A stretch of 56,497 bases of DNA from a virus (Duplodnaviria; Caudoviricetes): the IMG/VR virus record IMGVR_UViG_3300024517_000001, positions 1 to 56,497 of that record; one strand, given 5' to 3'. Positions 41,572-56,271 of this stretch are shown here, in pieces; within the stretch, counting starts at the first letter, position 1, and the number at the start of each line of letters is the position of its first letter. The translations under genes were made by a program, and so were the position numbers. Under the pieces are notes generated by a model that worked only from the letters and a program-made list of their open reading frames with translations, did no database searches and had not been told where the DNA came from.

Positions 41572-41625
41572 TTAATTAACATACTGTAGAGTACGTAAGT
41601 ACTCCCTCTACAGTATGTTAATTAA
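41572..41625. repeat. hairpin element copy 1
   Basis: TTAATTAACATACTGTAGAG-tacgtaagtactcc-CTCTACAGTATGTTAATTAA. Confidence 0.95.
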
Positions 41626-42090
41626 TTCAGCTTCTTGATAAGGTATATGGAAGAATGGTTCTTGCAGATGAGGTTCTCCTATACGAGTGGAGTTCTGTAT
41701 CTTCCCTATGGTAGACTCACCTACCAGATCACCATCCATAAACCAAGCCTTAGAACAATCGGTATTAAAGACTACAAAGATAAGCTCATGATCTTTAAAT
41801 TCTTTCTTCCATTTATTAATTAGTCTTTGCTTCCTCTCAGGTATTCTTACTTCCTTCCAAGAAGAAGGCCAGATATTACTCCATTGATTTTTAATCTCAA
41901 CCTCGAAGAAATAATTCTTACATGATCCATCTACATGCCAAAGTTTGGCAGAGATATCAAAGAAGTAGTCTTCTCTTTGTTCAATATCTGAGTAACCTTG
42001 TTGATATAGGTAGTTACTCATTGCATCCTTAGCTTTCTGATCATTAGCCTTATAGGATTCCTTATCAAACTTTCGATTATTGTGTGGCAT
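41608..42090 (-). CDS. putative PD-(D/E)XK-fold protein
   Basis: FFDI...FEVEIK; paralog of 44340-44738; stop codon inside hairpin element 1. Confidence 0.6.
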   Translation of the reverse strand: MPHNNRKFDKESYKANDQKAKDAMSNYLYQQGYSDIEQREDYFFDISAKLWHVDGSCKNYFFEVEIKNQWSNIWPSSWKEVRIPERKQRLINKWKKEFKDHELIFVVFNTDCSKAWFMDGDLVGESTIGKIQNSTRIGEPHLQEPFFHIPYQEAELINIL

Positions 42091-42724
42091 TTAATGTATC
42101 TCCTTTAGATAAGATTAGCTTTATAAAATTCCCTAAACAATTTCTACATAACTGTAATCTTTCTTTGTATTGATGACCCATCTCAGTTCTTTTTTTCACA
42201 TTTCTTTTATACTTATTACTTTCAATAAAATCTGATAAGTCAGCTATAGTTCTTCTACTTAAGTTAAACCACTCTCCACTTACATTTACTTCTTCTAAAC
42301 ATTCATGTAATGTATGTTCTAATTCTAAGACAGTATCATTATCTGAAAAAGCAGATGAATATATAATCTCAAGAGGAACCCAAGAACTAGTTTGTAATTG
42401 TTTTAATCTGGATTTAACATCATTGCTTATTCCTATTTTTACAGGGGTACATAATTCTAATCCATCACTAGCTAGTCCTGCAATAAAATAAATAAAAAAT
42501 CTATCTACACCTGTAGGATTGGATGCTTCTTTATTATAAATATATTCAAACTGTGGGTTAAGACTAAGTATCCTTTCTTTAATTTCAGGTCTGTGAAGAA
42601 TCCTGTGTCCTTGATTATATAAAGCTGATACTGAATAACCTGCTGATCTAGCTGCCTCCTTAGCATTAGGATAAGCGACAAAAGCTTGACAAAAGGCTTC
42701 GTATCTGGGTTTAAGATGAAGCAT
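42077..42724 (-). CDS. TerS-type HTH fused to a GIY-YIG (T5orf172-like) domain
   Basis: FCQAFV...NAKEAARSAGYS...LYNQGHRIL then FIYFI...VKIGISNDVKSRLKQLQT...LEHTLH...GEWF. Confidence 0.7.
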   Translation of the reverse strand: MLHLKPRYEAFCQAFVAYPNAKEAARSAGYSVSALYNQGHRILHRPEIKERILSLNPQFEYIYNKEASNPTGVDRFFIYFIAGLASDGLELCTPVKIGISNDVKSRLKQLQTSSWVPLEIIYSSAFSDNDTVLELEHTLHECLEEVNVSGEWFNLSRRTIADLSDFIESNKYKRNVKKRTEMGHQYKERLQLCRNCLGNFIKLILSKGDTLNATQ

Positions 42725-44359
42725 TTAATGTGTTTCCTTCCATGTTGTTCCAATCTTGTACTCACAATCAAGAGGACATTGCATCTCTAATGTCTTTGTT
42801 GTTTCCAGCATAGCATCTTTGGTTATCTGACCAAATCTCTCTGCATCTGTCTTGGCTACCTCAAATTGGTATTCATCGTGGACTGAGGCTACCAGCTTGA
42901 CATCTACTCCTGCCTTTCTAATGCCTTCATCCATATGAACAAGCCATTGCTTACAGACTATAGCTCCTGCTCCCTGTATGAGGGTATTGAGGGACGCATA
43001 GTCTGCCCTTATATGGAGGACTCTTCCATCTAAAGCCTTTATTGTACCTGTCTGTGATGCTTCAATAACATTATCCCTTAGCTTTTTCAAGCGAGGCATG
43101 TTGCGTAGGAAGTTAGTGATTAACTGTTGTCCTCTCTTAGCTCCTGCCCCTACCACCTTACCTATTTTGGAAGGTCCAGCCCCATAAAGAAAGGCATAGA
43201 TGAAAGTTTTTGCTTGATCTCTAGTCTGTAGTCCAGCCATTTTCTGATTGGCAGTATGAACATCACCAGTAAGAACCTCCTTGGTAAACTTGGGGTCATC
43301 CATATAGTGAGCTAGACATCTTAACTCCAGACCACTGGCATCTGTACCTAAAAGAACATGGGTATCAGGATTATCTATAGTCCATAGATCTCTACACTCC
43401 TTACCATAGGGACTGTAGATGGCTGGTACTTGCGCCATGTTAGGACTATGGTGAGCCATCCTGCCTGTTACTGTCCTGAGAGTAAGTACCTTACCTCTAA
43501 CTCTTTCATCCTCCTCACAAGCTTGTATCCAAGCCTTGAGAAGACCTGTTCTCTTCTGAAGAAGGAAGTATCTGCTAAACATCTTAGCTTCTTTCATGTC
43601 CAGCTTATCAAGGATCTCCTCACTCACAATTATATTACCTTTGTCCGTAGTCTTGGTAGGTTTCCAGCCTCTCTTCATAAGCCTGTCAGCTATCTGCTTT
43701 CTGCTGGCTATGTTAAAGGGAATATACTTGGTCTTTGTTTTGAGGACAACCTCAGTAGGCTCAAACATTTCATCAGCCTTACGTTCCAGATCATGTTGTT
43801 CATCCTCAAGCTTGGATAGCAATACCATTGCTTCACGTATATTAAATGCAAACCCATTCTTTTGTTGTTGATCTATAATTGCTCTGATTTTTCTTTCAAG
43901 GTTATACGATCTTGATGAGAACGAACAGCCTTCGATTGATAGTTGATGAGCAAGTTTGCTAGTGAGTGCCGTATCCATCCGACAATACTCCAACATAGCT
44001 GGAGTGTACGTAGTAAAATCATCGCAGTCTCCTTTAGGAAAGTTAAGTCTATCCCCCCATGACTGAAGGGAATGTCCACCATCTCTGATGGGATTAAATA
44101 ACTGAGATTCAATTAAGGTATCTCTTATCTGAGATAACTTAATCTTGGAACCTGTTAGTCTGTTAAGGATGGGAGCATCAAAGCTAATACCATTATGCAT
44201 AATGAATTGATCTATCTGCTTAGACCACTCAGCAAACTGCTGGCATTCTTCTCCTATCCATATCTTTTCTTTATCAGAGTCATAGGATCGAGCTACAATA
44301 CAATGTATTTTACTTGCATTAAGACTATCTGTTTCTATATCAACTATTGCTTGGGTCAT
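42725..44359 (-). CDS. DNA polymerase family A (T7-like, Tyr762 type) with 3'-5' exonuclease
   Basis: DIETD, HNGISFD, YCRMD; DASGLELR; RDQAKTFIYAFLYG; VHDE. Confidence 0.95.
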   Translation of the reverse strand: MTQAIVDIETDSLNASKIHCIVARSYDSDKEKIWIGEECQQFAEWSKQIDQFIMHNGISFDAPILNRLTGSKIKLSQIRDTLIESQLFNPIRDGGHSLQSWGDRLNFPKGDCDDFTTYTPAMLEYCRMDTALTSKLAHQLSIEGCSFSSRSYNLERKIRAIIDQQQKNGFAFNIREAMVLLSKLEDEQHDLERKADEMFEPTEVVLKTKTKYIPFNIASRKQIADRLMKRGWKPTKTTDKGNIIVSEEILDKLDMKEAKMFSRYFLLQKRTGLLKAWIQACEEDERVRGKVLTLRTVTGRMAHHSPNMAQVPAIYSPYGKECRDLWTIDNPDTHVLLGTDASGLELRCLAHYMDDPKFTKEVLTGDVHTANQKMAGLQTRDQAKTFIYAFLYGAGPSKIGKVVGAGAKRGQQLITNFLRNMPRLKKLRDNVIEASQTGTIKALDGRVLHIRADYASLNTLIQGAGAIVCKQWLVHMDEGIRKAGVDVKLVASVHDEYQFEVAKTDAERFGQITKDAMLETTKTLEMQCPLDCEYKIGTTWKETH

Positions 44360-44738
44360 AATTCATATCCACTTGATAAGTAAATTTAAGAGGTATACAA
44401 TAAAAGTTATTTCTTACCTCACTTTCCATGACAATATCTCCTGCTATATGCCATGCTTTCTTTAGATCTTTACGATAGACTATAAAAGTTAAGAGATCTC
44501 TTCGATAATCTTTGTACCATCTATCAACAACATCTTTATTTTTATAGGGTAGTCGTACTTCTTCCCACTTCTCAGGCCATTCATCCTCCCATTCTTCTAT
44601 TACTTCGACCTGATATAAGATCTTGAGATCTCCTCCATTAATACGACACTTAATATTAAACTCTGAAGTATCTGGATCTATTATTATATCAGGAATATGC
44701 GATTCAATCCAGCCAATTGTTTGTTCTCTAGGCTGCAT
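44340..44738 (-). CDS. hypothetical protein, paralog of 41608-42090
   Basis: shared W..W.EVR.P...F.V...D..KAW...GD.V.ES pattern. Confidence 0.65.
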   Translation of the reverse strand: MQPREQTIGWIESHIPDIIIDPDTSEFNIKCRINGGDLKILYQVEVIEEWEDEWPEKWEEVRLPYKNKDVVDRWYKDYRRDLLTFIVYRKDLKKAWHIAGDIVMESEVRNNFYCIPLKFTYQVDMNYDPSNS

Positions 44739-45267
44739 TCTTTTCCTCCGTTATTTTTTTAAAGTAATTACCTACTTGTATGACCTGATCTGGTGTAGCA
44801 TTATTCTTTATTCTATTAGCAAGCATACATATAATTTGTACATTTCCTTTTACATATCCTACTTCAGGAATAATTCTATCTATAGATGGTGAAGCATCAA
44901 TCTGCATTCCTTCTCCTTTTTTAAATTCAATACTAAGGACAGGACACTTATTATCTTCAGGCCATATTTCTTTAATATATTCTTTATCAAGATTAAAAGA
45001 AATATTTTTATTTCTAATCCTACTTTTAGTAACTGAACACAGATGTGCTTCCTTATTTTCTTTTCTGTGTCTTCTTTGTTGTTTTAATAAATCTTCTTTA
45101 TTTTCTTCATAATATTTTTTATAACGTTCTGCTATAGCTTCTTTATTTTTTTCACGATATTTTTTACGACTTTCTGCTATAGCTTCTTTATTTTCTTCAC
45201 AATATTTTTTATAATATTCTGCTATAGCTTCTTTATTTTCTTCAAGATATTTTTTACTATGTGGCAT
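44728..45267 (-). CDS. HNH-like homing endonuclease with N-terminal 15-aa repeats
   Basis: KKYxExNKEAIAE repeats; CPVL...SPSIDRI...GYVKGNVQIIC..ANRIK; start after GGAGG RBS. Confidence 0.75.
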   Translation of the reverse strand: MPHSKKYLEENKEAIAEYYKKYCEENKEAIAESRKKYREKNKEAIAERYKKYYEENKEDLLKQQRRHRKENKEAHLCSVTKSRIRNKNISFNLDKEYIKEIWPEDNKCPVLSIEFKKGEGMQIDASPSIDRIIPEVGYVKGNVQIICMLANRIKNNATPDQVIQVGNYFKKITEEKNAA

Positions 45268-46873
45268 CATCCTCCTCCATAAAAGGATTATCAACCTGTG
45301 ACATCCTGCCTGTCTCCTTATTATAGTGGAGGTAACAGGCAATACCAGTGTCTCCTGTGTATCTATTCTTGAGTATACGAAGAGTAGTGGTGTTAGCCTC
45401 ATGCTCGTCTTCTGCTTGTTGATTTCTTTCCAAGGCTATAACACTATCAGATAGGTGAGCTATACTAGCTGACCCTCTAAGATGCGACAGGCTGACCTCT
45501 CTGCCATCCTCATGGCCTCTGTCTCCTGCTGGTCTACGTAGGTGAGATACCAGTAAGAGTGCTATCCCTGTCTCTTCTACAAGGGATCTTAACTTGGTCA
45601 TTAGTACATCAATAGACTTTCTTTCATCTCCAAACTCTTCGTTTCCTGATACCAGTATGGAGAGGTGATCCAGAAAGATCCACTTACAGTCCAGAGCTTT
45701 AGCCATATACCTTACTCTATCAAGAATTTCATTGTTAGATATAGAACCAAAGTGATCGAATGCATAGAACCTTTTACTATCAATGGTCTTCTTCTGCCAC
45801 TCCCTAAGTTGCTCAGTAGTATACTGATCCCTTATTTCTTTGATGTATAGTCGAGCATTCGCTTCTACTGACATAAGATTAAAGGCTGTATGTTTTACAT
45901 TTTCTTCCATACAAAGTACACCTATATTATCCAGAGTACTTAACATAATATGATGCATGAGTTCCCTAATGATACTACTCTTACCCATGCCAGCACCACT
46001 GGTAAACGTAATGAGTTCTCCTGTCCTCATGCCATAGGTTTTCTCATTCATCTTAGGCCAAGGATACAGACAGGTTTCATTATAGTTCTCCTCATAGAGG
46101 GACTCCCCAAGGTCTGCAAGATTTATAATACCTGCTGGTGTGTAAGGCTTGGAGTTCCACCATGCCTGAGTAAAGCTTTCACGCCTTCCTTTTTGCAGAT
46201 ACTCATTCGCATCCTTAAATTCAAGAGCCATAATCTTACACTTGTTAGGTTCAAATAACTGGGCTACCTGTTGTGCCGCTTCTTTACCGGGAGCATCGTT
46301 ATCAAAACAGAGGACTACAGTCTCAAACTTGTTAAGATAATTAAAGGCTTGCTTGCAATTCTCTACGGCAGATGCAGCCCCATTCTTAATGGAAACCACA
46401 GGCCATTTGCTACCCATTAATTCATAGGCAGACATAGCATCTACTTCACCTTCACATACTGTGATATACTTACCAGCCTGATTGAATATGTTCTGTCCAA
46501 ATAGACCAGCCATAGAGATGTTACCTTCTGACCAGAACTTTTTAGTCAGAGCATTGCGTACCTTATTAGCTATGTGATTGTTATCTTCATCAAAGTATCT
46601 ATAAATATGATGGGTTACTTTTCCTCCATCAGCTAACTGAACCAAGGTATTAAACCTTTGAACTGTGTCCTTGCTAATGCTTCGGTCAGGGATTGAAGAC
46701 ACCTGTCCAGAGGACTTTAAACTGGAGCTAACTTCTACATTCATGGGAATAACCTCTGCTGTACCATTTGAAAATCTAGTCTTACAACTATAACAATACG
46801 AATGACCGTCATCATATAGATGATGGGCATCACTGGAACTACAACTAGGGCATGGCCCCTTTCGTTTAAGCAT
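45257..46873 (-). CDS. DNA primase-helicase (T7 gp4-like)
   Basis: CPSC/CYSC zinc finger, TOPRIM EGEVD and FDND, GAGMGKS, FLDHL, LRGSASI. Confidence 0.95.
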   Translation of the reverse strand: MLKRKGPCPSCSSSDAHHLYDDGHSYCYSCKTRFSNGTAEVIPMNVEVSSSLKSSGQVSSIPDRSISKDTVQRFNTLVQLADGGKVTHHIYRYFDEDNNHIANKVRNALTKKFWSEGNISMAGLFGQNIFNQAGKYITVCEGEVDAMSAYELMGSKWPVVSIKNGAASAVENCKQAFNYLNKFETVVLCFDNDAPGKEAAQQVAQLFEPNKCKIMALEFKDANEYLQKGRRESFTQAWWNSKPYTPAGIINLADLGESLYEENYNETCLYPWPKMNEKTYGMRTGELITFTSGAGMGKSSIIRELMHHIMLSTLDNIGVLCMEENVKHTAFNLMSVEANARLYIKEIRDQYTTEQLREWQKKTIDSKRFYAFDHFGSISNNEILDRVRYMAKALDCKWIFLDHLSILVSGNEEFGDERKSIDVLMTKLRSLVEETGIALLLVSHLRRPAGDRGHEDGREVSLSHLRGSASIAHLSDSVIALERNQQAEDEHEANTTTLRILKNRYTGDTGIACYLHYNKETGRMSQVDNPFMEEDDAT

Positions 46874-46892: not shown

Positions 46893-46946
46893 TTAATTAA
46901 CATACTGTAGAGTACGTAAGTACTCCCTCTACAGTATGTTAATTAA
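46893..46946. repeat. hairpin element copy 2 (identical to copy 1)
   Basis: direct reading; immediately upstream of the primase-helicase RBS. Confidence 0.95.
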
Positions 46947-48168: not shown

Positions 48169-48582
48169 CTATTCTACCTTTGTAAATAAGTTGCCCAGTA
48201 TTGAGCCGTCTTCCACCCTATTTTCTTTAGCTTCATATGATGCTCCACCTACATTAGTTCGTTGGATATCATTATGATTTAACTCAGCCCAGTAGATCTC
48301 CAAGGCTTCTGTCTCTTGATGAGCTATAAACTTATGCATCTCTCCTGCTGGTACGATAGAAGTATCGCCAGCAAACAGGTGAGTACTGTCACATAAGCCA
48401 TAGTCTTTCCATCTCTGGATCTCTAACTCACCACTGATTACATAGAACATATTGATCTTTGATTGATGCTTATGTTGTGAACAGTAAGCTCCAAGATCTA
48501 CCTTAATTCTATGTACTTCTACGGCTGCTGATTGCAGTATAGGTTCTGTACTGCCCCATACCTTACCTTCGATGACACTCAT
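48169..48582 (-). CDS. cupin-domain protein (sugar isomerase-like)
   Basis: KVWG, HKH, FYVISG, PAGEMHKF. Confidence 0.75.
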   Translation of the reverse strand: MSVIEGKVWGSTEPILQSAAVEVHRIKVDLGAYCSQHKHQSKINMFYVISGELEIQRWKDYGLCDSTHLFAGDTSIVPAGEMHKFIAHQETEALEIYWAELNHNDIQRTNVGGASYEAKENRVEDGSILGNLFTKVE

Positions 48583-48762
48583 TTACTTCTCCTTTTTTGG
48601 TTGGAAAAATACAATAGTAATTTCATTGGACGAACTATAAAGATGCTCAGGGTCTTCCTCACCATCAAGGATTTCCCAAGTAATATCTGTTCCATCAAGT
48701 AATTCTTCCAAAGCCTTTAATAAAGGTTTATGAATTACCATATCTGTATATGTCATTGACAT
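48583..48762 (-). CDS. hypothetical protein (59 aa)
   Basis: manual translation; bounded by AGGAGAAGTAAATG junctions. Confidence 0.55.
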   Translation of the reverse strand: MSMTYTDMVIHKPLLKALEELLDGTDITWEILDGEEDPEHLYSSSNEITIVFFQPKKEK

Positions 48763-48960
48763 TTACTTCTCCTCCAATCTAAAATAAATATAGTCATCTC
48801 CTACTGTAATAGATTTAACATTGGGGTTAACCTTTTGTTTTCCCACATAATTCCATTCCAGATCAGGGTTAGTGGTTGTCTGTTGATGGACTTCATCAAA
48901 GAACTCTTTGTTCTCTATATAAAAAATAAGATTTGTTATCATAGAAAATACTATAAACAT
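48763..48960 (-). CDS. hypothetical protein
   Basis: ORF with RBS junction. Confidence 0.6.
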   Translation of the reverse strand: MFIVFSMITNLIFYIENKEFFDEVHQQTTTNPDLEWNYVGKQKVNPNVKSITVGDDYIYFRLEEK

Positions 48961-49131
48961 TTACTTCTCCTTATATACAATGTGTAATTTAGATACTATC
49001 TCTTTAACTATGCCATCAAGGTAGGGTTGTAGCCCTGCTCTATGTATGTTAAATAATTTTTTATGTTGTTCAAGTTCTGATTCAAGAGATTTAATCTTTA
49101 AATCTTTTTCATCTAGTTCTTCATCAGCCAT
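48961..49131 (-). CDS. hypothetical protein (56 aa)
   Basis: manual translation MADEELDEKD..., AGGAG RBS. Confidence 0.55.
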   Translation of the reverse strand: MADEELDEKDLKIKSLESELEQHKKLFNIHRAGLQPYLDGIVKEIVSKLHIVYKEK

Positions 49132-49140
49132 TGTTTTCTC

Positions 49141-49377
49141 CTAATGTCCTAGTTTAGAGTTGCGTTCTACTGCTTCATCTCTGGTGATGCACTCAAACTT
49201 TTGAATGCTTACCATCTTATCTTTAAAGTGATTGTTAATTGATAAAGATAATGTATCTTTATATTCTCCAATATATTTCTCACACAAATTCTTATTAGTG
49301 TAAGGATAACTATATTGTATCCAGCCTAGGGGAGGATGAACATTCAGCATAATCAAGGCTGTAATAAAGTAGATCAT
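49141..49377 (-). CDS. hypothetical protein
   Basis: hydrophobic N-terminus, two Cys. Confidence 0.6.
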   Translation of the reverse strand: MIYFITALIMLNVHPPLGWIQYSYPYTNKNLCEKYIGEYKDTLSLSINNHFKDKMVSIQKFECITRDEAVERNSKLGH

Positions 49378-49550
49378 TTGTCTCTCTCCTCTTCAAGACT
49401 TTTAATAATACCAAGTAGTTCTCTGACATCAGCCCTGTAGAGTGACCAGTACTTCTCTTTGTCCAAGTCACCCCTGCTGTTATCAGCCCTTTTCAAATTA
49501 GCCAAGGCTATCTCCTTGACCTGTTCTATCCTTTCTTTTCTGAGTTGCAT
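49374..49550 (-). CDS. hypothetical protein
   Basis: TAATG-coupled start MQLRKE. Confidence 0.55.
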   Translation of the reverse strand: MQLRKERIEQVKEIALANLKRADNSRGDLDKEKYWSLYRADVRELLGIIKSLEEERDK

Positions 49551-50470
49551 TACGCTGCTAACGCCTCCCATTCTGGAGACGCTAACATCTTCCTCACCTT
49601 ATCTTCTCTGTTAACCTTCACATTATGAGGTGAACTTCCACGCTTACTATCAGGATGGGAAGACCAGTAGGTAGCTGCATTGTATGCAGTCCAGAGGGTT
49701 CCTTCCTCTCTCTTGCCATAGGTTTCATAGTGTCCTCGTCCATGTATGTGACGGTTCTCTTCATCGAAGATCTTCATGAGGTTAGATAGCATTACCTTAT
49801 TAGCTACCTTCTTCTTACTGACATTATCAGTACGTTGAGCCAGTGTTTTAGTGAAGAGATTGATAGCCTCATACCTTTTTAATGGGGTATCATACCAGTT
49901 ACGCATCTCTTCAAGACCTTTGCCAGAGATAAACTCACCAGCATTCCTAATCTTGGTAGCAAATCCAGAGATGTTAAAGTTCTTGGTATGCCTACCATAG
50001 ACATAGGCCAGCTTATCACCAGATACTAAGGTATTATAACAGAAGGATCTCCATAGTCCCATCATACCATTGTTAGCCCATGTCCTGTTATGGGATGTCC
50101 TGAAGACAAACTCAGGTATGATAGTATCTTTACCACCCATACGCATAGCATGGGCAGGGAACTTAGCTCTTAACTCCAGCTTGGCTCCATAATCATAGAC
50201 ATTAGTCGTAAAGTCAGCGTCAGTCATGTCTATCTCAGCCCTTTTAAGGGCTTCTTCTACACCATCTACGATCTCTGCATACTGGACAGGGAAGTACTCA
50301 TCAGAGACTATACCTATAGGTTCCTTGGTATCTGTACGCCTTAGACCTACTCCAATATGTGAGGGTATTTTCTCTGCTTTGGTGTAAGGAACTAAGTCTT
50401 CACCTGCTTGCCACTCATTAATAAGTGGAAATTTTTCTACCAAGAAATCTATCTTGCTATGATCAAACAT
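49550..50470 (-). CDS. DUF932/DUF945-family protein
   Basis: RRTDTKEPIGIVSDEYFPVQ, CYNTL, RHT, GTLWTAYNAATYW. Confidence 0.75.
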   Translation of the reverse strand: MFDHSKIDFLVEKFPLINEWQAGEDLVPYTKAEKIPSHIGVGLRRTDTKEPIGIVSDEYFPVQYAEIVDGVEEALKRAEIDMTDADFTTNVYDYGAKLELRAKFPAHAMRMGGKDTIIPEFVFRTSHNRTWANNGMMGLWRSFCYNTLVSGDKLAYVYGRHTKNFNISGFATKIRNAGEFISGKGLEEMRNWYDTPLKRYEAINLFTKTLAQRTDNVSKKKVANKVMLSNLMKIFDEENRHIHGRGHYETYGKREEGTLWTAYNAATYWSSHPDSKRGSSPHNVKVNREDKVRKMLASPEWEALAA

Positions 50471-50905: not shown

Positions 50906-50958
50906 TTAATGAGTATCTAGTAGAGTTCGTTAGTACTCACTCTACTAGATCTCATTAA
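50906..50958. repeat. hairpin element copy 3
   Basis: TTAATGAG(T)ATCTAGTAGAG-ttcgttagtactca-CTCTACTAGATCTCATTAA. Confidence 0.9.
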
Positions 50959-51378: not shown

Positions 51379-51609
51379 TCAATGCAATACTCTCTTATCT
51401 TCAGTATGCTGAACGCTTTGAATTGCCACATTAAACATCCCAATAGTACTTTCTTTGCCAATAGTTTCTACATATAACTTAAGGCAAGCACTTAACAAAG
51501 CACCTGATACCATCAGGATATTAGATTTACTTTCATCAGGAGGTGAAGTCTCTCTGATAAGTTCCCATAACTTATTCTGAAACTCAAGAAGTTCTTCTTC
51601 TTCAGTCAT
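51379..51609 (-). CDS. hypothetical protein
   Basis: 76-aa ORF with RBS. Confidence 0.6.
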   Translation of the reverse strand: MTEEEELLEFQNKLWELIRETSPPDESKSNILMVSGALLSACLKLYVETIGKESTIGMFNVAIQSVQHTEDKRVLH

Positions 51610-51742
51610 GGTTTTTTCCTTAGCATATTGAGAAGCTTCTCATACTGCATGAGCTTTGCCTTTAATTTTTTAATTCTAATGTGACTATTTTGCAACTGTT
51701 CTTGCAGTTCCCTCACATTTCTTTTAAGGATTTCTGTCTGGC

Positions 51743-51997
51743 TCATAGCTTATGTAACTCCTCTTTCAATTCCTCCAGTTGATTTATACTTTCATCACAC
51801 AAGTAACGTATAGCCTTTACTTTGTCTATACATAGGTTTACTTTAGCTTTTGCTTCAGGAATTTTTCCCATGATATAGGCATCATCGATAGGCATGTGGA
51901 TTTTCTTTAAACTATTCTTAGTATGCCCAAAGACTTCATCTAATTCTGGGATAGGTTCTCCTGTTTGTACAAAACCTGTTGCTTTTTTATCACTCAT
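51743..51997 (-). CDS. hypothetical protein
   Basis: ATGA-coupled ORF. Confidence 0.6.
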   Translation of the reverse strand: MSDKKATGFVQTGEPIPELDEVFGHTKNSLKKIHMPIDDAYIMGKIPEAKAKVNLCIDKVKAIRYLCDESINQLEELKEELHKL

Positions 51998-52209
51998 GCT
52001 ACCCTCTCAATCTTTAGAGCATCTGGATAGTCTTCCAAAAGATCAGCAGTATTTTCATATAACTCTGATAGTTCTGCAAAGGAAGTTGTTCCCTTACTAT
52101 CACATACCTGACATTCATATAGTCTGCTACTTGATAGGTCTGTATCTACTGCAAAATGTCCCTCACCATCACAGTTAGGACACGTAATCGTAATGTTATA
52201 GCGTGTCAT
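51994..52209 (-). CDS. small DnaJ-type zinc-finger protein
   Basis: CPNCDGEG and CQVCDSKG; GGAGG RBS. Confidence 0.65.
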   Translation of the reverse strand: MTRYNITITCPNCDGEGHFAVDTDLSSSRLYECQVCDSKGTTSFAELSELYENTADLLEDYPDALKIERVA

Positions 52210-52286
52210 AGAATCCTCCATAGTATAGGAAAACTAAACATAACATAGCAATGATGGTAACTCCCATCATCAGTTTAAATATTTCA

Positions 52287-52430
52287 TTAAGCATTCTCCA
52301 TCTCCTCCTCTGCTAAAGACATAGCTTCTAGCTCTGCTCTGTCTACATCATTATATATTGCCAGCATTTTAGTTAAATGCTTTTCATATATGTCCTCAAG
52401 TTGAGCCTGTATTGGTGAAGGTAAACTCAT
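52287..52430 (-). CDS. hypothetical protein (47 aa)
   Basis: manual translation MSLPSPIQAQLED..., GGAG RBS just after element 4. Confidence 0.5.
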   Translation of the reverse strand: MSLPSPIQAQLEDIYEKHLTKMLAIYNDVDRAELEAMSLAEEEMENA

Positions 52431-52445
52431 AACATTTCTCCATAT

Positions 52446-52500
52446 TTAATTACGTTCTCTATCTAGTACGTAAGTACTAACTAGATAGAGAACTAATTAA
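52446..52500. repeat. hairpin element copy 4
   Basis: TTAATTA(C)GTTCTCTATCTAG-tacgtaagtactaa-CTAGATAGAGAACTAATTAA. Confidence 0.93.
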
Positions 52501-52525
52501 GTTTAGTATAACATAAGTAAATTAA

Positions 52526-53107
52526 TTAATCAACTATATAGTCTTTATGTAGTCGACTAACATGCTGACCATTCTTGTATTTGTTGGGGTACTTCTCAGC
52601 TAGTAGGTCACACCAGCTATTCCATAGGAATTCACAACCACCTAGATCTTCACAAAGTTTTATATATAACTTTGCTTTGCCAAGGGCTGTATCATATTTA
52701 ACTTTGCTTATCTTGAAGGCTGATGCTGATAGTCCAAACCTTCTCAGGTTATGGACATCAAGACAACCAACCTTACCAAGGCATAGCTGTAATACAAAGC
52801 CAGCTTTGACTATACCAATCCCATTAATACTAGCTACTGCTAGTAATTTCTCAGCCATCGGAAGCTTACGGCTATAGATAGCCTTATGTAAGTCTTCCTT
52901 ATTGGCTAGGATGTAGTCCCAACCAGCCCTCTTCGATCCAAATAAGTATTTGGATTTTAATCCATTACTTTTTAGGTCAATTATCTGACGGCCTACCGTC
53001 TCCCATTGCTGTTGTATAGACAACAGAACCATAGCTATAATCCATTGGGTATTATCTGGGGACTTTCTTCCCCATCTTCCAATAGATTTTTGGTGCGTAG
53101 AAAACAT
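52526..53107 (-). CDS. HhH-GPD-like DNA glycosylase (putative)
   Basis: LLAVASINGIGIVKAGFVLQL...CLDVHNLR. Confidence 0.6.
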   Translation of the reverse strand: MFSTHQKSIGRWGRKSPDNTQWIIAMVLLSIQQQWETVGRQIIDLKSNGLKSKYLFGSKRAGWDYILANKEDLHKAIYSRKLPMAEKLLAVASINGIGIVKAGFVLQLCLGKVGCLDVHNLRRFGLSASAFKISKVKYDTALGKAKLYIKLCEDLGGCEFLWNSWCDLLAEKYPNKYKNGQHVSRLHKDYIVD

Positions 53108-53121
53108 TTCCTTCTCCTTAA

Positions 53122-53397
53122 TTAACAAGGATCTCCTAACTTTGGTTGGTTCTCAACAAAGTTAAGAAGCTCTTTTAGATCTTGAATATTTTCTTCAAGA
53201 TCTGGATGGTTCCTGTTTTGGATACCTAAGTTTCTCAACAGCCATCTAATATTAGATGTAATCCATAAGTTCCTTCTATGCTTTGGAACATCGAAGCTCA
53301 TGTCTGCAAGAAAGAAATCATGAATACCATTGTCAGGTTCGTTATCCAATTTGATGTTTACACAATCTGGATTGGTTGGTAATTTTATTTCACACAT
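53122..53397 (-). CDS. hypothetical protein
   Basis: ORF, start MCEIK after AAGG. Confidence 0.6.
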   Translation of the reverse strand: MCEIKLPTNPDCVNIKLDNEPDNGIHDFFLADMSFDVPKHRRNLWITSNIRWLLRNLGIQNRNHPDLEENIQDLKELLNFVENQPKLGDPC

Positions 53398-53410
53398 AGT
53401 CTTTACCTTG

Positions 53411-53470
53411 AAAAAAATAGGGAGATACAACGTAATCCCCATTAGATGGGATTGTAACAGGGTATCTCCC
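53411..53470 (-). terminator. long terminator-like hairpin with U-tract
   Basis: GGGAGATAC...GTATCTCCC then TATTTTTTT; inner AATCCC/GGGATT stem. Confidence 0.6.
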
Positions 53471-53479
53471 CAAGTTTAC

Positions 53480-53677
53480 CTAACGGTTAACATTAAAGAT
53501 TGGCCTAATACTAGAGCCAAACTTATTAAAAGTTTTGCCAGTAAACACATAGAAGCTACGCTTTCTAAAGTGCAGACCAACTGAGCTATCGCCAACGCTT
53601 ACGCCATAGCGATTTTCTACTGTCCTAGCTGGTTTAGAAAACCAACCTGTCTTATTGAGGATTTGAAATGAGGTCAT
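53480..53677 (-). CDS. hypothetical protein
   Basis: GGAG RBS after pseudoknot leader. Confidence 0.6.
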   Translation of the reverse strand: MTSFQILNKTGWFSKPARTVENRYGVSVGDSSVGLHFRKRSFYVFTGKTFNKFGSSIRPIFNVNR

Positions 53678-53696
53678 TTCATACTCCGTTAGTGGT

Positions 53697-53725
53697 GTCA
53701 GCATCAAACCCTGCCAACTTGGGGT
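53697..53725 (-). ncRNA. predicted H-type pseudoknot leader A1
   Basis: ACCC-caa-GTTGGCA-GGGT-ttga-TGCTGAC; homolog at 55053-55082 with compensatory changes. Confidence 0.6.
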
Positions 53726-53728
53726 ACT

Positions 53729-53780
53729 TTAATTAACTCCCTCTAGTTACGTAAACACTTAACTAGAGGGATTTAATTAA
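53729..53780. repeat. hairpin element copy 5
   Basis: TTAATTAAcTCCCTCTAGTTA-cgtaaacact-TAACTAGAGGGAtTTAATTAA. Confidence 0.93.
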
Positions 53781-53787
53781 GAAGATC

Positions 53788-53961
53788 TTAGTATACATAT
53801 CCTCGCCAAGATTTCACATGATCATTTATGGCTTTGGATATAGAAGCTTTCAAATCTTCCTTTTCGTTAACTGTTAAATCGTCACGAAATTCAACAGCTT
53901 TGAGCTTGTCAATTCGATCCTGTAGTGGAACACTAGAATAAGGTTTCCATGTTCTATTCAT
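53788..53961 (-). CDS. hypothetical protein (57 aa)
   Basis: manual translation MNRTWKPYSSVPLQ..., AAGGAG RBS. Confidence 0.55.
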   Translation of the reverse strand: MNRTWKPYSSVPLQDRIDKLKAVEFRDDLTVNEKEDLKASISKAINDHVKSWRGYVY

Positions 53962-53972
53962 TGGCAACTCCT

Positions 53973-54236
53973 TTAATTATTTAAGTCACGCATCAGGTAT
54001 TCACCTGATTTTATTTTAGCTTGCGTTTCTTTCTTAGTCTCACTGAGAAATCTATTTCTATATTTCCCTGTAGTTTGTGAGTAATCCCACTTGTTTTTAT
54101 CAAGAAAGACTTGGCCTCTGATAATCACTACAATGAGAGTATCATAGGATTGAAACCATTTCTTGTCACCATCAGTTACTACAAACTGATTAACTACTGG
54201 TTGCCCAGTATTTCCTATCATGTTGGAAACATACAA
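53973..54236 (-). CDS. phage hypothetical protein
   Basis: NQF...FQSYDT...WDYSQTTGKYRNRFL; AAGGAG RBS after element 6. Confidence 0.7.
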   Translation of the reverse strand: MYVSNMIGNTGQPVVNQFVVTDGDKKWFQSYDTLIVVIIRGQVFLDKNKWDYSQTTGKYRNRFLSETKKETQAKIKSGEYLMRDLNN

Positions 54237-54252
54237 TGTCTTTCTCCTTTCT

Positions 54253-54305
54253 TTAATTAACCCTCTGTAGTTACGTAAGTACTTAAACTACAGAGGTTTA
54301 ATTAA
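54253..54305. repeat. hairpin element copy 6
   Basis: TTAATTAAcCCTCTGTAGTT-acgtaagtactta-AACTACAGAGGtTTAATTAA. Confidence 0.95.
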
Positions 54306-54308
54306 TAT

Positions 54309-54587
54309 TTAAAAAGCCCACCATTCTTTGATGCACTTATCACTGGTTTTAATATGACTAACGTCAACAACTTGCCAGTGGCCTACTTCCTCATCTTTAC
54401 AATCTGCTGTAAAGATACCGTCAACATCTTCCTTTACAAAGCTATGACCAGCAAAGAAACTCATTGCTTTGATAGCTTCTATAGCTTCTTCTTTTGTAAT
54501 GAAAAAGGTTCCTATTCTTTTCTCGAATTCCCAATTATCAATCTCGTTAGGATCATCGAAAAAAGAACAATGCACTACCATAAACAT
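54309..54587 (-). CDS. hypothetical protein
   Basis: AAGGAG RBS. Confidence 0.65.
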   Translation of the reverse strand: MFMVVHCSFFDDPNEIDNWEFEKRIGTFFITKEEAIEAIKAMSFFAGHSFVKEDVDGIFTADCKDEEVGHWQVVDVSHIKTSDKCIKEWWAF

Positions 54588-54745
54588 AGTCTTTCTCCTT
54601 TCTTTAATCTATACCAAGTGAAGTTAATAAACTCCACTTGGCAGCCTAAATTCTCCCAACACCGCATAGCTTTCATCTCTTTAGGCAGAGCCTACTCACA
54701 TTTTTTTTGGTGTTTACTGTTGTCACATTGGACAATCTCCTTTAC

Positions 54746-54797
54746 TTAATTACTAAGTATTAGTTACGTAAATACTTAACTAATACTTAGTAATTAA
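54746..54797. repeat. hairpin element copy 7
   Basis: perfect 21-bp arms TTAATTACTAAGTATTAGTTA around cgtaaatact. Confidence 0.93.
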
Positions 54798-54799
54798 AG

Positions 54800-54827
54800 T
54801 GAGCAGTTTAATGACTTGCTCAGGTCA
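54800..54827 (-). ncRNA. predicted compact H-type pseudoknot B
   Basis: TGAC-c-TGAGCA-a-GTCA-ttaaac-TGCTCA. Confidence 0.5.
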
Positions 54828-54833
54828 GCCTAC

Positions 54834-55034
54834 TTAGGCTGCTTTCCGTGAGGTTTCTACACCTTCAGGGACTGCATCAAGGTTCTTAATGACCTTGAAA
54901 GCCTGTACTGTGTTACCCTCTTTGAGGGCATGCAGTACTGCTACTGGAATACCAGCATCAGCTTTGTCTTGGAAACCATCTTCTTTGATGGTCTGCCATT
55001 TATTTGCTTTCGTCAAGAACTGAAATGTTTTCAT
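54834..55034 (-). CDS. hypothetical protein
   Basis: MKTFQFL start after GGAG RBS and pseudoknot leader. Confidence 0.6.
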   Translation of the reverse strand: MKTFQFLTKANKWQTIKEDGFQDKADAGIPVAVLHALKEGNTVQAFKVIKNLDAVPEGVETSRKAA

Positions 55035-55052
55035 AAGAAAACTCCGTAATGT

Positions 55053-55082
55053 GTCGATCATCAAAGCCTGACCAACTTGGCT
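55053..55082 (-). ncRNA. predicted H-type pseudoknot leader A2
   Basis: AGCC-aa-GTTGGTCA-GGCT-ttga-TGATCGAC. Confidence 0.6.
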
Positions 55083-55086
55083 ATAT

Positions 55087-55138
55087 TTAATTAACCCTCT
55101 GTAGTTTCGTAAGTACTTAACTACAGAGGTTTAATTAA
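55087..55138. repeat. hairpin element copy 8
   Basis: TTAATTAAcCCTCTGTAGTT-tcgtaagtactt-AACTACAGAGGtTTAATTAA. Confidence 0.95.
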
Positions 55139-55144
55139 CTTCAA

Positions 55145-55321
55145 TTAAGAAGGAAACGTGTACACTGTAGCCTCTGGATTAAGAGCAAAGAACTCAGAAG
55201 CTTCAGCGAGTGCTAAAGCACCGTATGCAGCTTCAAGATCACCAGAAGCTTCATGAGAGAGAGCATCAGCAAAAAACTTATCAGCATATTCAGTGTATTC
55301 AGTAGTCGTCAATAAAACCAT
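55145..55321 (-). CDS. small acidic hypothetical protein
   Basis: GGAGG RBS; single gene between elements 9 and 8. Confidence 0.6.
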   Translation of the reverse strand: MVLLTTTEYTEYADKFFADALSHEASGDLEAAYGALALAEASEFFALNPEATVYTFPS

Positions 55322-55335
55322 CGACACCTCCAAAG

Positions 55336-55388
55336 TTAATTAACCCTTGGTAGTTACGTAAGTACTTAAACTACCAAGGTTTAATTAA
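55336..55388. repeat. hairpin element copy 9
   Basis: TTAATTAAcCCTTGGTAGTT-acgtaagtactta-AACTACCAAGGtTTAATTAA. Confidence 0.95.
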
Positions 55389-55400
55389 ACTCAATTAAGA

Positions 55401-55568
55401 TTAAAGAAAAGCAGTTTCAACATCGAGTGATGTCTTAAAAGTCTCAATCCATTCTCCTTCAGAGTTATGGATTTCAAAGCCTTGTCCAGTTACTGACGTA
55501 GTAACTGTGAATTGATCATTACCATGAACAAAATCGATCATGGTTTGCAAAGCAAGTTCGTCAGTCAT
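55401..55568 (-). CDS. hypothetical protein (55 aa)
   Basis: manual translation MTDELALQTMIDF..., ATGA coupling, AAGGAG RBS. Confidence 0.55.
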   Translation of the reverse strand: MTDELALQTMIDFVHGNDQFTVTTSVTGQGFEIHNSEGEWIETFKTSLDVETAFL

Positions 55569-55750
55569 GACATCTCCTTTATTGTTACGATTAGCAGGAG
55601 TATAACAAATACTCCTACTAAAGCAAAGATAAAACCTACACCAAGCATTATTACTTGGTGTTCACCAAAAAAGAATGGAAACAACAACCATTCCAGAGAG
55701 ACAACCCAGTAAGCTACTACTGGGATCATAAACGAGAGGAAAATTCTCAT
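55565..55750 (-). CDS. small two-TM membrane protein
   Basis: 61 aa, almost entirely hydrophobic. Confidence 0.6.
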   Translation of the reverse strand: MRIFLSFMIPVVAYWVVSLEWLLFPFFFGEHQVIMLGVGFIFALVGVFVILLLIVTIKEMS

Positions 55751-55896
55751 GACACTACCTCAATTCTCTCTTCGAGAATTTCTTCTCCTCTTGCCAAACC
55801 AATTTGCTCTATGGCTTGAACTCTTGTTGCAGCCCATTCATAGACATAATCAACTTCGACACCAAACTGAATTGGAATGCGATATTTCTCTTTCAT
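55747..55896 (-). CDS. hypothetical protein (49 aa), first gene of the early arm
   Basis: manual translation MKEKYRIPIQFGVEV..., ATGA coupling. Confidence 0.5.
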   Translation of the reverse strand: MKEKYRIPIQFGVEVDYVYEWAATRVQAIEQIGLARGEEILEERIEVVS

Positions 55897-55920
55897 AGCC
55901 TTAGCTCCAAAAAAAGGTTA

Positions 55921-55974
55921 TCAGGTAACTCTCTGTAGTTACGTAAAGTACTTAAACTACAGAGAGCTACCTGA
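55921..55974. repeat. hairpin element copy 10 (TCAGGTA base instead of TTAATTAA)
   Basis: TCAGGTAaCTCTCTGTAGTT-acgtaaagtactta-AACTACAGAGAGcTACCTGA. Confidence 0.9.
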
Positions 55975-56153
55975 ACTCAATTAAGATAAGAAGAACTTCA
56001 ACCTCGTCATCGATCTGTCAAGCCTCGTCAAAATCCTAGGGATTTCGTCATGTGTCAAAGATCTCTGATCTTCCTATGCACAAGTAAAATCCCTTGGATT
56101 TTCAAAGACTTATCGATAGGTTGAAGTATTTAGCAAAGCTAGGGATTGGGTTT

Positions 56154-56182
56154 TAATTACATCCTCTGGATGATTTTGTCAA
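56154..56182 (-). promoter_or_regulatory. candidate early sigma70 promoter (TTGACA-N17-TAATTA)
   Basis: consensus -35, weak -10, points into the early arm. Confidence 0.45.
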
Positions 56183-56230
56183 CCTTCCCCTAAACTTCGT
56201 TTAAACTTAGCCAATCCAACTACTAAACTA

Positions 56231-56271
56231 GGATCTCTCTAAGTTCAGTAAGAACTTCCTTAGAGAGATCC
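56231..56271. repeat. degenerate hairpin element copy 11
   Basis: GGATCTCTCTAAG-ttcagtaagaacttc-CTTAGAGAGATCC. Confidence 0.6.

Follow-up and report, generated by a model that had tools for sequence, protein, structure and literature searches.

In the genome of an uncultured marine phage, analysed here as a window of 56,497 nucleotides (the whole stretch of DNA studied), eleven copies of one conserved hairpin separate the early genes, all of them in gaps of the minus-strand gene arm and, like the other features described here, on the minus strand. Two copies, at 41572-41625 and 46893-46946, match at 54 of 54 bases. In the former, a TAG at hairpin position 16 stops the upstream ORF (41608-42090), and a strong sigma-70-like promoter (TTGACT-17-TATAAT, 41539-41567, an 11/12 match with TG) follows just 3' of the hairpin; the latter lies directly upstream of the primase/helicase ribosome-binding site, and the stop of its upstream ORF falls within the TTAATTAA base. 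The copy at 50906-50958 is built on the base TTAATGAG, has a bulged A on its 3' side and holds the upstream ORF's stop at hairpin position 12, bringing to three the window ORFs that terminate inside a hairpin. At 52446-52500 there is a bulged G on the 3' side, and a promoter-like TTGATT-17-TATACT (52505-52533) ends 4 nt before the element. A.G mismatches occur at 53729-53780 (at bp 9), 54253-54305, 55087-55138 and 55336-55388; the first of these copies forms the right border of a locus with three alleles among close relatives, and the second is followed by AGGAG and a start codon. The stem at 54746-54797 is fully paired, and the copy at 55921-55974, on the base TCAGGTAG, pairs G with U at bp 8, where the plus strand would have an A.C mismatch. 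The first and shortest copy, at 56231-56271, combines a 13-bp stem with the same capped mini-helix and lacks the TTAATTAA base. Stop-rich boxes lie directly 5' of three hairpins—TCTTAATTGAAG at 55139-55150 (hairpin at 55087) and TCTTAATTGAGT at 55389-55400 (hairpin at 55336) and 55975-55986 (hairpin at 55921)—the last being, in the relative L113, part of a unit repeated at extra cassettes.

An earlier note, made from the sequence alone, had placed hairpins at these eleven starts, and all were recovered: nine through a repeat search, and those at 50906 and 56231 through RNA folding and a covariance model, R1. Run with filters off over both strands of the entire window, R1 scored the eleven sites at 51-76 bits on the minus strand and at 22-52 bits on the plus strand; beyond them the top score was 13.3 bits, and the late arm therefore carries no copy. 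The common orientation and restriction to the early arm that the note had described are thus confirmed, whereas its "degenerate" copy at 56231 proved, by R1 and by folding, to be a true member with a different base. The ten distinct window copies fold at -21.4 to -33.6 kcal/mol (z-scores -5.2 to -8.6; 0/200 shuffles equally stable). The cap 12-mer has 20 occurrences (at most 2 mismatches allowed; 5.1 ± 2.5 expected) and TTAATTAA also has 20 (4.1 ± 2.1 expected), with 0/100 shuffles reaching the count in each case; 12 of the 20 TTAATTAA occurrences are hairpin bases.

A covariance-model search of viral sequences, which the note had proposed, recovered the family in related marine viral contigs (17/80 and 27/65 in two sets), and it was found in 0/38 candidate stretches of prokaryotic genomes. 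Relatives can do without individual copies: the one upstream of the primase gene is present in 3/40 related loci examined, and 2/5 complete relatives have no R1-detectable copy. The family has no Rfam match above threshold, and the terms "hairpin", "stem-loop" and "promoter" are without match in the paper on the nearest cultured phages. The note's description of the elements as undescribed therefore holds for this family but not for its kind, to which the RNase III sites of T7 and the promoter-early stem-loops (PeSLs) of T4-type phages can be compared.

Family statistics were taken over 64 distinct copies, with median values of 21 for the number of pairs (range 15-24) and -24 kcal/mol for dG. 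Each hairpin starts from an 8-bp, AU-only, palindromic base and a weak point, above which the variable stem runs for 11-12 bp. A bulge of 2-4 nt on the 5' side then leads to a coaxial mini-helix of 4-5 bp, capped by C-UUAC-G. The weak point, 8-11 bp from the base, takes the form of a G.U pair, an A.G mismatch or a bulged purine, and the 3' side almost always contributes a G; in the window, the irregularity noted 8-9 bp from the base in seven copies is indeed present in 7/11, as four A.G mismatches, two bulges and one G.U pair. The stems covary, as had been claimed: pairing fills 91.6% of cells (72.8 ± 1.1 after shuffling), both sides change at 16/17 pairs of the main helix, and the covariation score reaches 0.51, whereas shuffles give 0.16 and slid partners no more than 0.12. 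Covariation extends to the mini-helix, which keeps a fixed loop while its closing pair alternates between A-U and U-A (10 to 10), and the L142 ortholog of the 41572 copy differs from it by compensated changes. The hairpin structure is under selection. Whereas stems vary freely, the cap is near-invariant (CTTACG in 40/64 copies, TTTACG in 7/64). The same genomes contain a second loop class, RWAGUG, and the cap 8-mer GTACTTAC is also the core of a 12-nt iteron where the two arms join; the lineage of the window is the only one in which iterons with a shared cap word were found.

The same set of copies indicates which strand folds. There are 25 G.U pairs in the mRNA-sense fold, from 18 hairpins whose stems differ, and 0 in the antisense fold. 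The 21 1x1 mismatches include no A.C apposition, and in 60/64 copies the sense strand folds more stably than its complement. What folds is therefore not the template but the transcript or else the non-template DNA strand, a result that contradicts the earlier emphasis on the plus strand with its C-GTAA-G loop, drawn from phage N4. G.T wobbles stabilise DNA hairpins too, and a fold of the non-template DNA strand, rather than RNA, is possible.

Copies sit exactly between a stop codon and the next Shine-Dalgarno (SD) site and are confined to the co-transcribed early arm; an SD-like motif lies at most 30 nt downstream in 54/64 copies and at most 5 nt downstream in 37 of those 54. The 5' arm contains stops in at least two frames in 63/64 copies (32.5 expected) and in all three in 28/64 (4.3 expected), the window figure for 5'-arm stops being 8/11, so that no upstream ORF can run past the helix. 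Most hairpin gaps are too small for a promoter, and sigma-70-like sites flank 8/64 copies, with about 4.4 expected; transcription would therefore have to read through. Only 7/64 copies have at least five T in the 9 nt that follow the stem, and the statement that no window copy has a U-tract is right for ten of the eleven, the exception being 55921, with a seven-T run 6 nt downstream on the sense strand. Assembled contigs break at hairpins in the one RNA run and in the DNA-like run alike. Three copies (41572, L142 and L024:6374) are followed at once by TTGAC(T/A)-17-TATA(A/C)T promoters, a layout expected at the end of a transcription unit, which counts against a processing role.

Protein searches bear out the earlier observation that neither an RNA polymerase nor an integrase is seen. 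No phage RNA polymerase was found with PHROGs and Pfam on the large virion proteins, by PDB sequence search or through a DFDGD-type motif, and searches of the complete genome for a tyrosine recombinase and for a Y1 transposase were negative, with positive controls in each case. Because no phage polymerase was found and the minus strand of the early arm holds three 11-of-12 sigma-70 matches, we infer that the host polymerase reads these genes. Among 30 early ORFs searched, none had a Pfam family, with only sub-threshold zinc-ribbon or coiled-coil matches.

Comparing gene content between elements in relatives, another proposal of the note, uncovered hairpin-bounded indels. Between the window and its close relatives, 3/6 indels adjoin a hairpin and the other 3/6 lie away from any. 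L113 carries extra units of box, hairpin and ORF, both L113 and L153 have dense arrays with one small gene per hairpin, and copies come and go between neighbouring genes that are themselves conserved. Of the 9 genes in the stretch at 53.5-55.9 kb, where hairpins are dense, 7 have no homologue in any of 19 related loci. Hairpins thus mark places of small-gene gain and loss. No window gene is common to the 8 hairpin-bearing loci yet absent from the 11 R1-negative loci; the absence of a phage gene that follows the hairpins agrees with the involvement of a host factor.

We put at about one in two the probability that these elements are intercistronic RNA hairpins of the T7 RNase III type, which would process and stabilise early messages and double as portable gene boundaries in the manner of PeSLs. 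Of the functions that the note had left open, mRNA processing and cassette shuffling gain support, whereas its template-strand, N4-type emphasis is contradicted by the strand bias of the G.U pairs. Against the processing reading stand the dispensability of individual copies and the lack of sequence similarity to the T7 sites; moreover, bacterial RNase III is not known to require a specific loop, and the near-invariant cap therefore points to a further, sequence-specific reader. The geometry fits the RNase III reactivity epitopes given in the sections of PMC1540722 drawn on here, namely a helix of about two turns and coaxial stacking of short helices; according to the same sections, internal loops or bulges limit the enzyme to cutting one strand, leaving a 3' hairpin. 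Early transcripts made by host RNA polymerase would fold in the sense strand, and a double-strand-specific endonuclease, most likely host RNase III, may recognise the irregular two-turn helix and cut at or near the weak point, as at the early sites of T7. A protective hairpin would thereby remain at the 3' end of the upstream message, and the downstream message would begin with a short AU leader directly ahead of its SD site. Since the element carries a stop and adjoins the next ribosome-binding site, it could work as a portable gene boundary, and in the hypervariable region with which the early arm starts, recombination at copies would add, remove or swap cassettes of one gene each.

The evidence of sense strand, position and stability applies equally to an RNA hairpin that is left uncleaved—an attenuator or partial terminator, a 3' exonuclease barrier or a cistron insulator, like the stem-loop half of a PeSL—which we regard as a serious if rather unlikely candidate. 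The three copies with a promoter next have the classic terminator-promoter layout, and in the portion of PMC2839356 used here the PeSL stem-loop cut reporter expression about as much as a strong terminator. However, few stems are followed by T-runs, strong termination would silence a next gene that mostly has no promoter in its gap, and neither a terminator nor an exonuclease block needs a helix as long as about 21 bp or a conserved weak point within it. Conservation of the cap far above that of the stems, covariation of the mini-helix around its loop, the second loop class and the reuse of GTACTTAC at the junction of the arms could all be read as the mark of a sequence-specific phage or host protein—a translational repressor, RNA chaperone, anti-terminator or dedicated endoribonuclease, for example—that binds 5' bulge, mini-helix and loop and co-regulates the early genes. 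We consider this improbable, given that the early ORFs belong to no Pfam family, no window gene follows the hairpins across loci, cap-word iterons are confined to one lineage and a hairpin of at least 20 bp is much longer than typical operator hairpins.

Hairpin-bounded indels, the repeated units of L113, the one-gene arrays, the turnover of copies between conserved genes, the tolerance of DNA hairpins for G.T wobble and a stop codon inside the element, as in some attC cassettes, would also suit a DNA element whose presence in RNA is incidental: a sense-strand single-stranded hairpin or cruciform acting as a recombination site (attC, REP/MITE-like) or replication signal. The complete genome without tyrosine recombinase or Y1 transposase, the exact stop-to-SD placement in the co-transcribed early arm only, the half of the indels that lie away from any hairpin and the variable stems, which leave just 8 + ~14 nt shared for homologous exchange, make this quite improbable. 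Template-strand hairpin promoters read by a virion-carried polymerase, the note's leading analogy, seem barely credible. The C-GTAA-G loop on the plus strand is of GNRA type and the copies keep to the early arm, but each sense-strand wobble becomes an A.C mismatch on the plus strand, the searches turned up no polymerase-like protein, the genome has canonical sigma-70 promoters, and stems of at least 20 bp contrast with the 5-7 bp of N4 promoter hairpins. Moreover, most copies end at most 5 nt from the next ribosome-binding site, so a transcript started there would lack a leader.

Set beside known systems, the processing hairpins proposed here recall REP/BIME, Correia/NEMIS and ERIC elements, which are likewise small, dispersed, co-oriented intergenic palindromes that fold in mRNA, with RNase III cleavage reported for Correia elements. 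Those elements are chromosomal and tied to transposases (RAYT) or target-site duplications, whereas the phage hairpins come without a Y1 transposase, were found in 0/38 prokaryotic stretches and are specific to the phage lineage. Integron attC sites are also imperfect palindromes at the 3' end of single-gene cassettes, with structure conserved above sequence, one strand favoured, unpaired bases and sometimes a stop codon within the site; the phage hairpins differ in lying in a co-transcribed early operon of a genome without integrase, with an SD directly after each and a conserved cap sequence, and they do not exactly match the attC consensus boxes. PeSLs, in the parts of PMC2839356 and PMC4122927 drawn on here, are conserved intergenic stem-loop motifs ending at the SD and start of the next gene, and both families cluster among hypervariable-region ORFans at indel borders between close relatives. 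In the same parts, the defining feature of PeSLs is a strong sigma-70 promoter, between or over whose boxes the stem-loop lies, and the stems are G/C tracts that terminate transcription, whereas the phage stems are long, have an AU-rich base and lack U-tracts. A promoter-like site beside only 8/64 copies, where about 4.4 are expected, sets the phage family further apart.

In T7, early mRNA carries the RNase III signals R0.3, R0.5, R1, R1.1 and R1.3; the folds that we obtain for the early intergenic gaps have 19-25 pairs and -17 to -26 kcal/mol, and a conserved motif recurs among these gaps. The two sets show no sequence similarity (covariance model R1 reaches a maximum of 10.9 bits in T7 bases 1-9000), and cleavage in the present phage, in which no RNA polymerase of its own was found, is predicted; what sets its family apart is the invariant mini-helix with its UUAC cap, the palindromic base made only of A and U, the stops built into two or three frames and the frequent turnover of copies. 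Both, however, are sets of related, irregular hairpins of about two turns and of similar size and stability, placed between early genes transcribed by host polymerase and just upstream of the next ribosome-binding site, with an internal irregularity of the sort that, in the sections of PMC1540722 used here, goes with cutting of one strand.

The genome is a complete viral record of 56,497 bp organized as two converging gene arms: a late arm on the + strand (0.1-30.9 kb) carrying terminase, portal, ejection, and large virion proteins, and an early arm on the - strand (31-56.3 kb) carrying a T7-like primase/helicase, a family-A DNA polymerase, a Cas4-like exonuclease, and ribonucleotide reductase, along with ~30 small ORFs to which a Pfam search assigned no family. 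Among cultured phages, the closest are HTVC115P and HTVC103P of Pelagibacter, whose primases are 48% and 43% identical to that of the window and which have the same two-arm layout; the phage falls inside or next to the HTVC103P-type group, which the paper describing it places in the top five by abundance for most ocean viromes (bioRxiv 10.1101/2019.12.14.876532). A megablast search of the phage collection with the early arm returned no match. A possible module for nucleotide-sugar or DNA modification lies on the minus strand at 32814-36676, where three ORFs sit side by side: one of 793 aa with an MptE-like domain (PF01973), one weakly matching glycosyltransferase-8, and one encoding a SAM methyltransferase.

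Phage RNA polymerase, tyrosine recombinase, RNase III, and Y1 transposase were all sought in this genome and none was found, in agreement with the earlier note, which had seen neither an RNA polymerase nor an integrase. The large virion proteins matched no polymerase family profile, had no PDB relative, and contained no DFDGD-type motif, searches that a very divergent enzyme could escape; PF00940 was also unmatched in the genome, a result made uninformative by a control that likewise matched nowhere. The profiles for tyrosine recombinases (PF00589; control matched in 14/14 genomes) and Y1/HUH transposases (PF01797; control matched in 6 genomes) were unmatched as well. Because no phage RNA polymerase was found and a promoter scan placed three sigma-70 matches of 11/12 on the minus strand of the early arm, we adopt expression of this arm by the host polymerase as a working assumption.

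Repeat listing, RNA folding, and a covariance model together recovered the eleven early-arm hairpins (- strand, 41572-56271) that the earlier note had described. The ten distinct copies have folding energies between -21 and -34 kcal/mol (z-scores -5.2 to -8.6); the copies at 41572-41625 and 46893-46946 are identical at 54/54 bases and bracket a 5.3-kb primase-to-polymerase (replication) module, and the stems of all other copies differ. The model, built from the eleven window copies and run over the whole genome with filters off, returned eleven sites and nothing further above 13.3 bits, which bears out the claim that none lies in the late arm, and at each site scores were higher on the - strand (51-76 bits) than on the + strand (22-52 bits). 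The cap word and the TTAATTAA base are both strongly over-represented in the window, where copies occupy 10 of ~35 early-arm gene junctions and one leader site.

Anatomy was read on the sense strand of 64 distinct copies pooled from the window and related viral contigs. The helix, of 15-24 pairs (median 21), starts from a base of (Y)TAATTAA, followed 8-11 bp from its foot by a weak point—an A.G mismatch (13 of the 21 1x1 mismatches), a G.U pair, or a bulged purine—with G nearly always on the 3' side. Above this come 11-12 bp of freely varying stem, usually ending GUAG/CUAC, a 5'-side bulge of 2-4 nt, and a covarying mini-helix of 4-5 bp (GUAC/GUAC, GUUC/GAAC, GUAUC/GAUAC) closed by a C-UUAC-G loop, the core being CTTACG in 40/64 copies and TTTACG in 7/64; a second loop class, RWAGUG, is found in 12/64. 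Within a 29-sequence alignment, 91.6% of cells were paired versus 72.8% in shuffles, both sides had changed in 16 of 17 main-helix pairs, and slid-partner controls collapsed. These statistics, taken on copies related to each other, uphold the proposal that the arms differ yet stay complementary and that the structure is selected. Since a DNA palindrome keeps both strands complementary, covariation alone tells neither whether RNA is the folded molecule nor which strand folds.

With copy orientation fixed from the asymmetric cap, the 64 copies contain 25 G.U pairs in the sense fold and 0 in the antisense fold; these wobbles are spread over 18 hairpins with different stems and trace to some ten independent changes in the main stem, while A.C appositions are absent from the copies' mismatches. 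The sense fold is the more stable one in 60 copies; in 3 the two folds are equal, and in 1 the antisense fold is the stronger. Orientation set by the cap also agrees with gene direction: 54/64 copies have an SD-like motif within 30 nt downstream, and 37 of these 54 have it within 5 nt. As both G.U counts and stability favor the sense strand, this is the strand that folds, which decides against the analogy with phage N4 that had been preferred: the C-GTAA-G loop of the template (+) strand is simply the complement of the selected fold. On G.U and stability evidence alone, the folded molecule may also be the non-template DNA strand.

The copies sit in intercistronic gaps of the minus-strand early arm, between the upstream stop and the downstream SD/start, much as had been described for most of them. 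In the window, the stop of the upstream ORF falls 5-38 nt ahead of the hairpin or within it, as with the minus-strand TAG at position 16 of copy 41572, TAA in the base of copy 46893, and TAG at position 12 of copy 50906. Across the family, the conserved words are themselves stops in different frames, with TAA at positions 2 and 6 and TAG near position 16. All three frames are closed within the 5' arm in 28/64 copies versus 4.3 expected from shuffles, and at least two in 63/64 versus 32.5, while the whole hairpin closes three frames in 54/64 copies and in 8/11 of those in the window. A stop-rich box, TCTTAATTGAR, precedes three copies. Stop content thus accounts for some of the conservation seen in TTAATTAA and GTAG, and the pattern is what one would expect of a boundary that has to function whatever ORF precedes it.

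Sigma-70-like sites lie beside 8/64 copies versus ~4.4 expected from shuffles (3 upstream, 2.1 expected; 5 downstream, 2.3 expected), among them a promoter-like site just upstream of copy 52446 and three strong promoters directly downstream of a hairpin, at copy 41572 and in two related contigs (L142 and L024:6374). Hairpin and SD take up most gaps, so that transcription of the next gene must run through the hairpin. Two further motifs were noted on the minus strand. A leader of ~45 nt (…CCAAGTTGG.CAGG.TTTGATG…ACGGAG) follows hairpins 53729 and 55087 (53685-53728 and 55042-55086), lies ahead of the next start codon, and is also present in the related contigs L014 and L113. A TTGAC(A/G) cluster (TTTGACA…TTTTGACGAGGCTTGACA…GATGACGAGGTTGAAG) at 55987-56065 lies just upstream of the 55921 hairpin, with similar TTGACGAGG…TTGACA clusters ahead of the first hairpins in three other related contigs (L054, L069, L153); such clusters may be early promoters or operator repeats.

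Members of the family were found in 17 of 80 IMG/VR loci encoding a primase 70-100% identical to that of the window, and a pattern scan over the viral collection picked out 70 stretches, of which 65 were given to the model and 27 hold members; the covariance model and viral database search proposed earlier have separated the family from background and located it in relatives. Copies of any one locus all run in the same direction, and density is highest in L113, with nine or ten members in a 5-kb contig. Three complete relatives carry 4, 1-2, and 5 sites, every one upstream of the primase gene; in another two, also complete, R1, the covariance model of the family, detects no copy, and neither HTVC115P nor HTVC103P has a member (best match E 0.73). 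A pattern scan of 185,579 prokaryotic genomes yielded 38 candidate stretches, about the chance number, of which 0 passed the model, giving no host clue. Rfam offered only miRNA-precursor models (23-34 bits versus gathering scores of 54-80), a literature search turned up no description, and the words "hairpin", "stem-loop", and "promoter" had no match in the available part of the HTVC103P-group paper (bioRxiv 10.1101/2019.12.14.876532); within Rfam, the literature searched, and that part of the paper, the family is undescribed for an abundant marine phage group, as the earlier note had supposed. In the related lineage of L021 and L017, whose primase is 77% identical, another hairpin family (CTAGTTA...TAACTAG, ~23 bp, one bulged A on the 3' side; L021:2487-2536, 2831-2880, and 5788-5837; L017:2474-2525) occupies the same stop-hairpin-AGGAG position.

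Comparison of gene content between elements in close relatives gave six indels, a small number of events: 3/6 abut a hairpin, and the other three, at 48.1-49.1 kb, lie away from hairpins. L113 has two extra units of box, hairpin, and small ORF, its homology to the window ending inside the 55921 hairpin and resuming 26 nt upstream, and it is missing the gene at 53788-53961 beside the 53729 hairpin; in L014 this gene is replaced by another hairpin and a different 346-nt segment, and a 427-nt insertion lies between the 52446 hairpin and the next start codon. Upstream of the primase gene, the hairpin copy interrupts a pair of conserved genes as an insertion; it is present in only 3/40 related loci examined and was rejected as a conserved clade-wide ortholog. 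In the hairpin-dense 53.5-55.9 kb, 7/9 genes have no homologue in 19 related loci. Six consecutive early genes at 48.1-50.5 kb (48169-50470) encode proteins 96-98% identical to their L021 counterparts, with the primase at only 77%, which indicates a recent block exchange between lineages with different hairpin families. Sequence comparison therefore suggests that the copies sit in a hyperplastic mosaic region, often at breakpoints. A co-occurrence search found no phage gene that tracks the hairpins.

The DNA polymerase is apparently split, a 544-aa piece (42725-44359) being followed by an ORF (42077-42724) with T5orf172/MUG113 and Terminase_2-like domains that looks like a homing endonuclease, and then by a 160-aa ORF (41608-42090) whose homologues in related loci are 30-42% identical. 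Contigs assembled from X2, a sequencing run of undefined kind, join 42085/42090 straight to 42729, which shows that some relatives lack the inserted ORF. A 45-nt tandem repeat (3.6 copies, 88% matching) lies in coding sequence at 45093-45256, just downstream of the primase gene, and several joints in X2 contigs fall within it. Assembled contigs from both X2 and X1, a single metatranscriptome run in which 0.08 of sampled words matched, break at hairpins (50896/50905, 46919, and 53775-54267 are examples), as assemblies do at repeats; the X2 joint 55374->55988 is most simply a relative whose 55921-type hairpin has the TTAATTAA base and was not counted as a deletion.

We consider it most likely, by analogy, that the copies are intercistronic processing signals in the style of T7. 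In published work on bacterial RNase III, reactivity epitopes span about two helical turns, short helices can be coaxially stacked to that length, and internal loops or bulges restrict the enzyme to one phosphodiester, leaving a protective 3' hairpin (PMC1540722). The family helix agrees with these epitopes in its two turns, coaxial stacking, and internal loop or bulge, and folding of the T7 early gaps, bounded by annotated genes in GenBank records that do not list the RNase III sites, gave hairpins of similar size and energy that also have a shared motif among themselves. By this processing model, the sense RNA of early transcripts would fold at each copy, cleavage of its 3' side at the weak point would give the upstream message a terminal hairpin, and the downstream message would start UUAAUUAA, then SD; every step past folding of the sense RNA is inference.

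N4 promoters are hairpins on the template strand with a short stem and a 3-nt loop, and such a promoter is very unlikely here, given that the sense strand folds, that stems reach at least 20 bp, and that searches of the large virion proteins found no polymerase. Identity with canonical intrinsic terminators was rejected, as a T-rich tail (at least 5 T within 9 nt after the stem) follows only 7/64 copies and none of 16 terminator-like sites in a terminator scan coincides with a family hairpin; the claim that no copy has a U-tract holds in the window except for copy 55921, which has a run of seven T 6 nt downstream. The 3' arm, G-TTAATTAA, differs at one position from GTTRRRY, the consensus of attC R/L core boxes, when compared by consensus alone, yet identity with integron attC sites was rejected with no IntI-type tyrosine recombinase in the complete genome, as was a REP/RAYT or IS200/IS605-type element with no Y1 transposase.

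Known properties of bacterial RNase III do not explain the invariant cap, which may be read by a sequence-specific factor. The cap 8-mer GTACTTAC, with 12 occurrences in the window versus 1.6 expected, recurs on the opposite strand as the core of a 12-nt iteron, ACAGGTACTTAC, present in ~3 copies at the junction of the two arms (1-35 and 56463-56497), where it accounts for the 35-bp "terminal repeat" of the record. Because the array is internal to the contig in L113 (1407-1441) and L105 (11397-11443), it is real sequence and not an assembly end. Shared use of this word would suit such a factor; yet iterons with the cap word are confined to the window's lineage (L113, L105), and no phage gene tracks the hairpins. 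We think it improbable that the hairpins are the cis half of a cassette system dedicated to an abundant marine phage group, a recombinase-free "phage integron" whose invariant UUAC-capped mini-helix is read by an unrecognised sequence-specific factor. Each copy would then be a self-contained gene boundary—stops in three frames, hairpin, then SD—and the factor, encoded by the host or among the ORFan early genes, would either process RNA or help single ORFan genes to be captured and lost with no integrase involved.

The device itself, an intercistronic hairpin of T7 type, is already known; what is new is a family variant with stops and a UUAC cap. Since its model tells members from chance matches, this RNA family provides a handle on how early expression is organized in such uncultured phages, and it also shows where their ORFan genes are exchanged. 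If RNase III cleavage is shown, the T7 strategy would extend to a marine phage lineage dependent on the host polymerase, and the built-in stops and fixed loop suggest a compact natural "insulator" part.

Like the RNase III sites of T7, the family consists of sense-strand hairpins in intercistronic gaps of what would be polycistronic early mRNA from the host polymerase, with promoter-like sites beside 8/64 only, and forms an irregular helix of about two turns (median 21 pairs) with an internal loop or bulge; unlike them, it is unrelated in sequence to the T7/T3 sites, the best R1 match in T7 bases 1-9000, with filters off, being 10.9 bits (E 2.6). It resembles the PeSL, the promoter-early stem-loop cassette of T4-type phages, in placing a stem-loop between the upstream stop and the downstream SD/start. 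PeSLs also mark the borders of indels in a hyperplastic region rich in ORFans; here the few events give 3/6 indels that abut a hairpin, and 7/9 genes of the hairpin-dense stretch have no homologue in 19 related loci. It differs from the PeSL in that a sigma-70 consensus promoter is not part of the copies (8/64 flanked versus ~4.4 expected); with that defining promoter absent and a T-rich tail in only 7/64, the element is neither a PeSL nor a canonical terminator. Stops in up to three frames and a fixed UUAC cap are two unusual traits, for which the parts of the literature consulted hold no such report on T7 sites or PeSLs. By analogy, then, the family would act like T7 RNase III sites and evolve like PeSLs, and, having no sequence relation to the former and no promoter as in the latter, is a member of neither.
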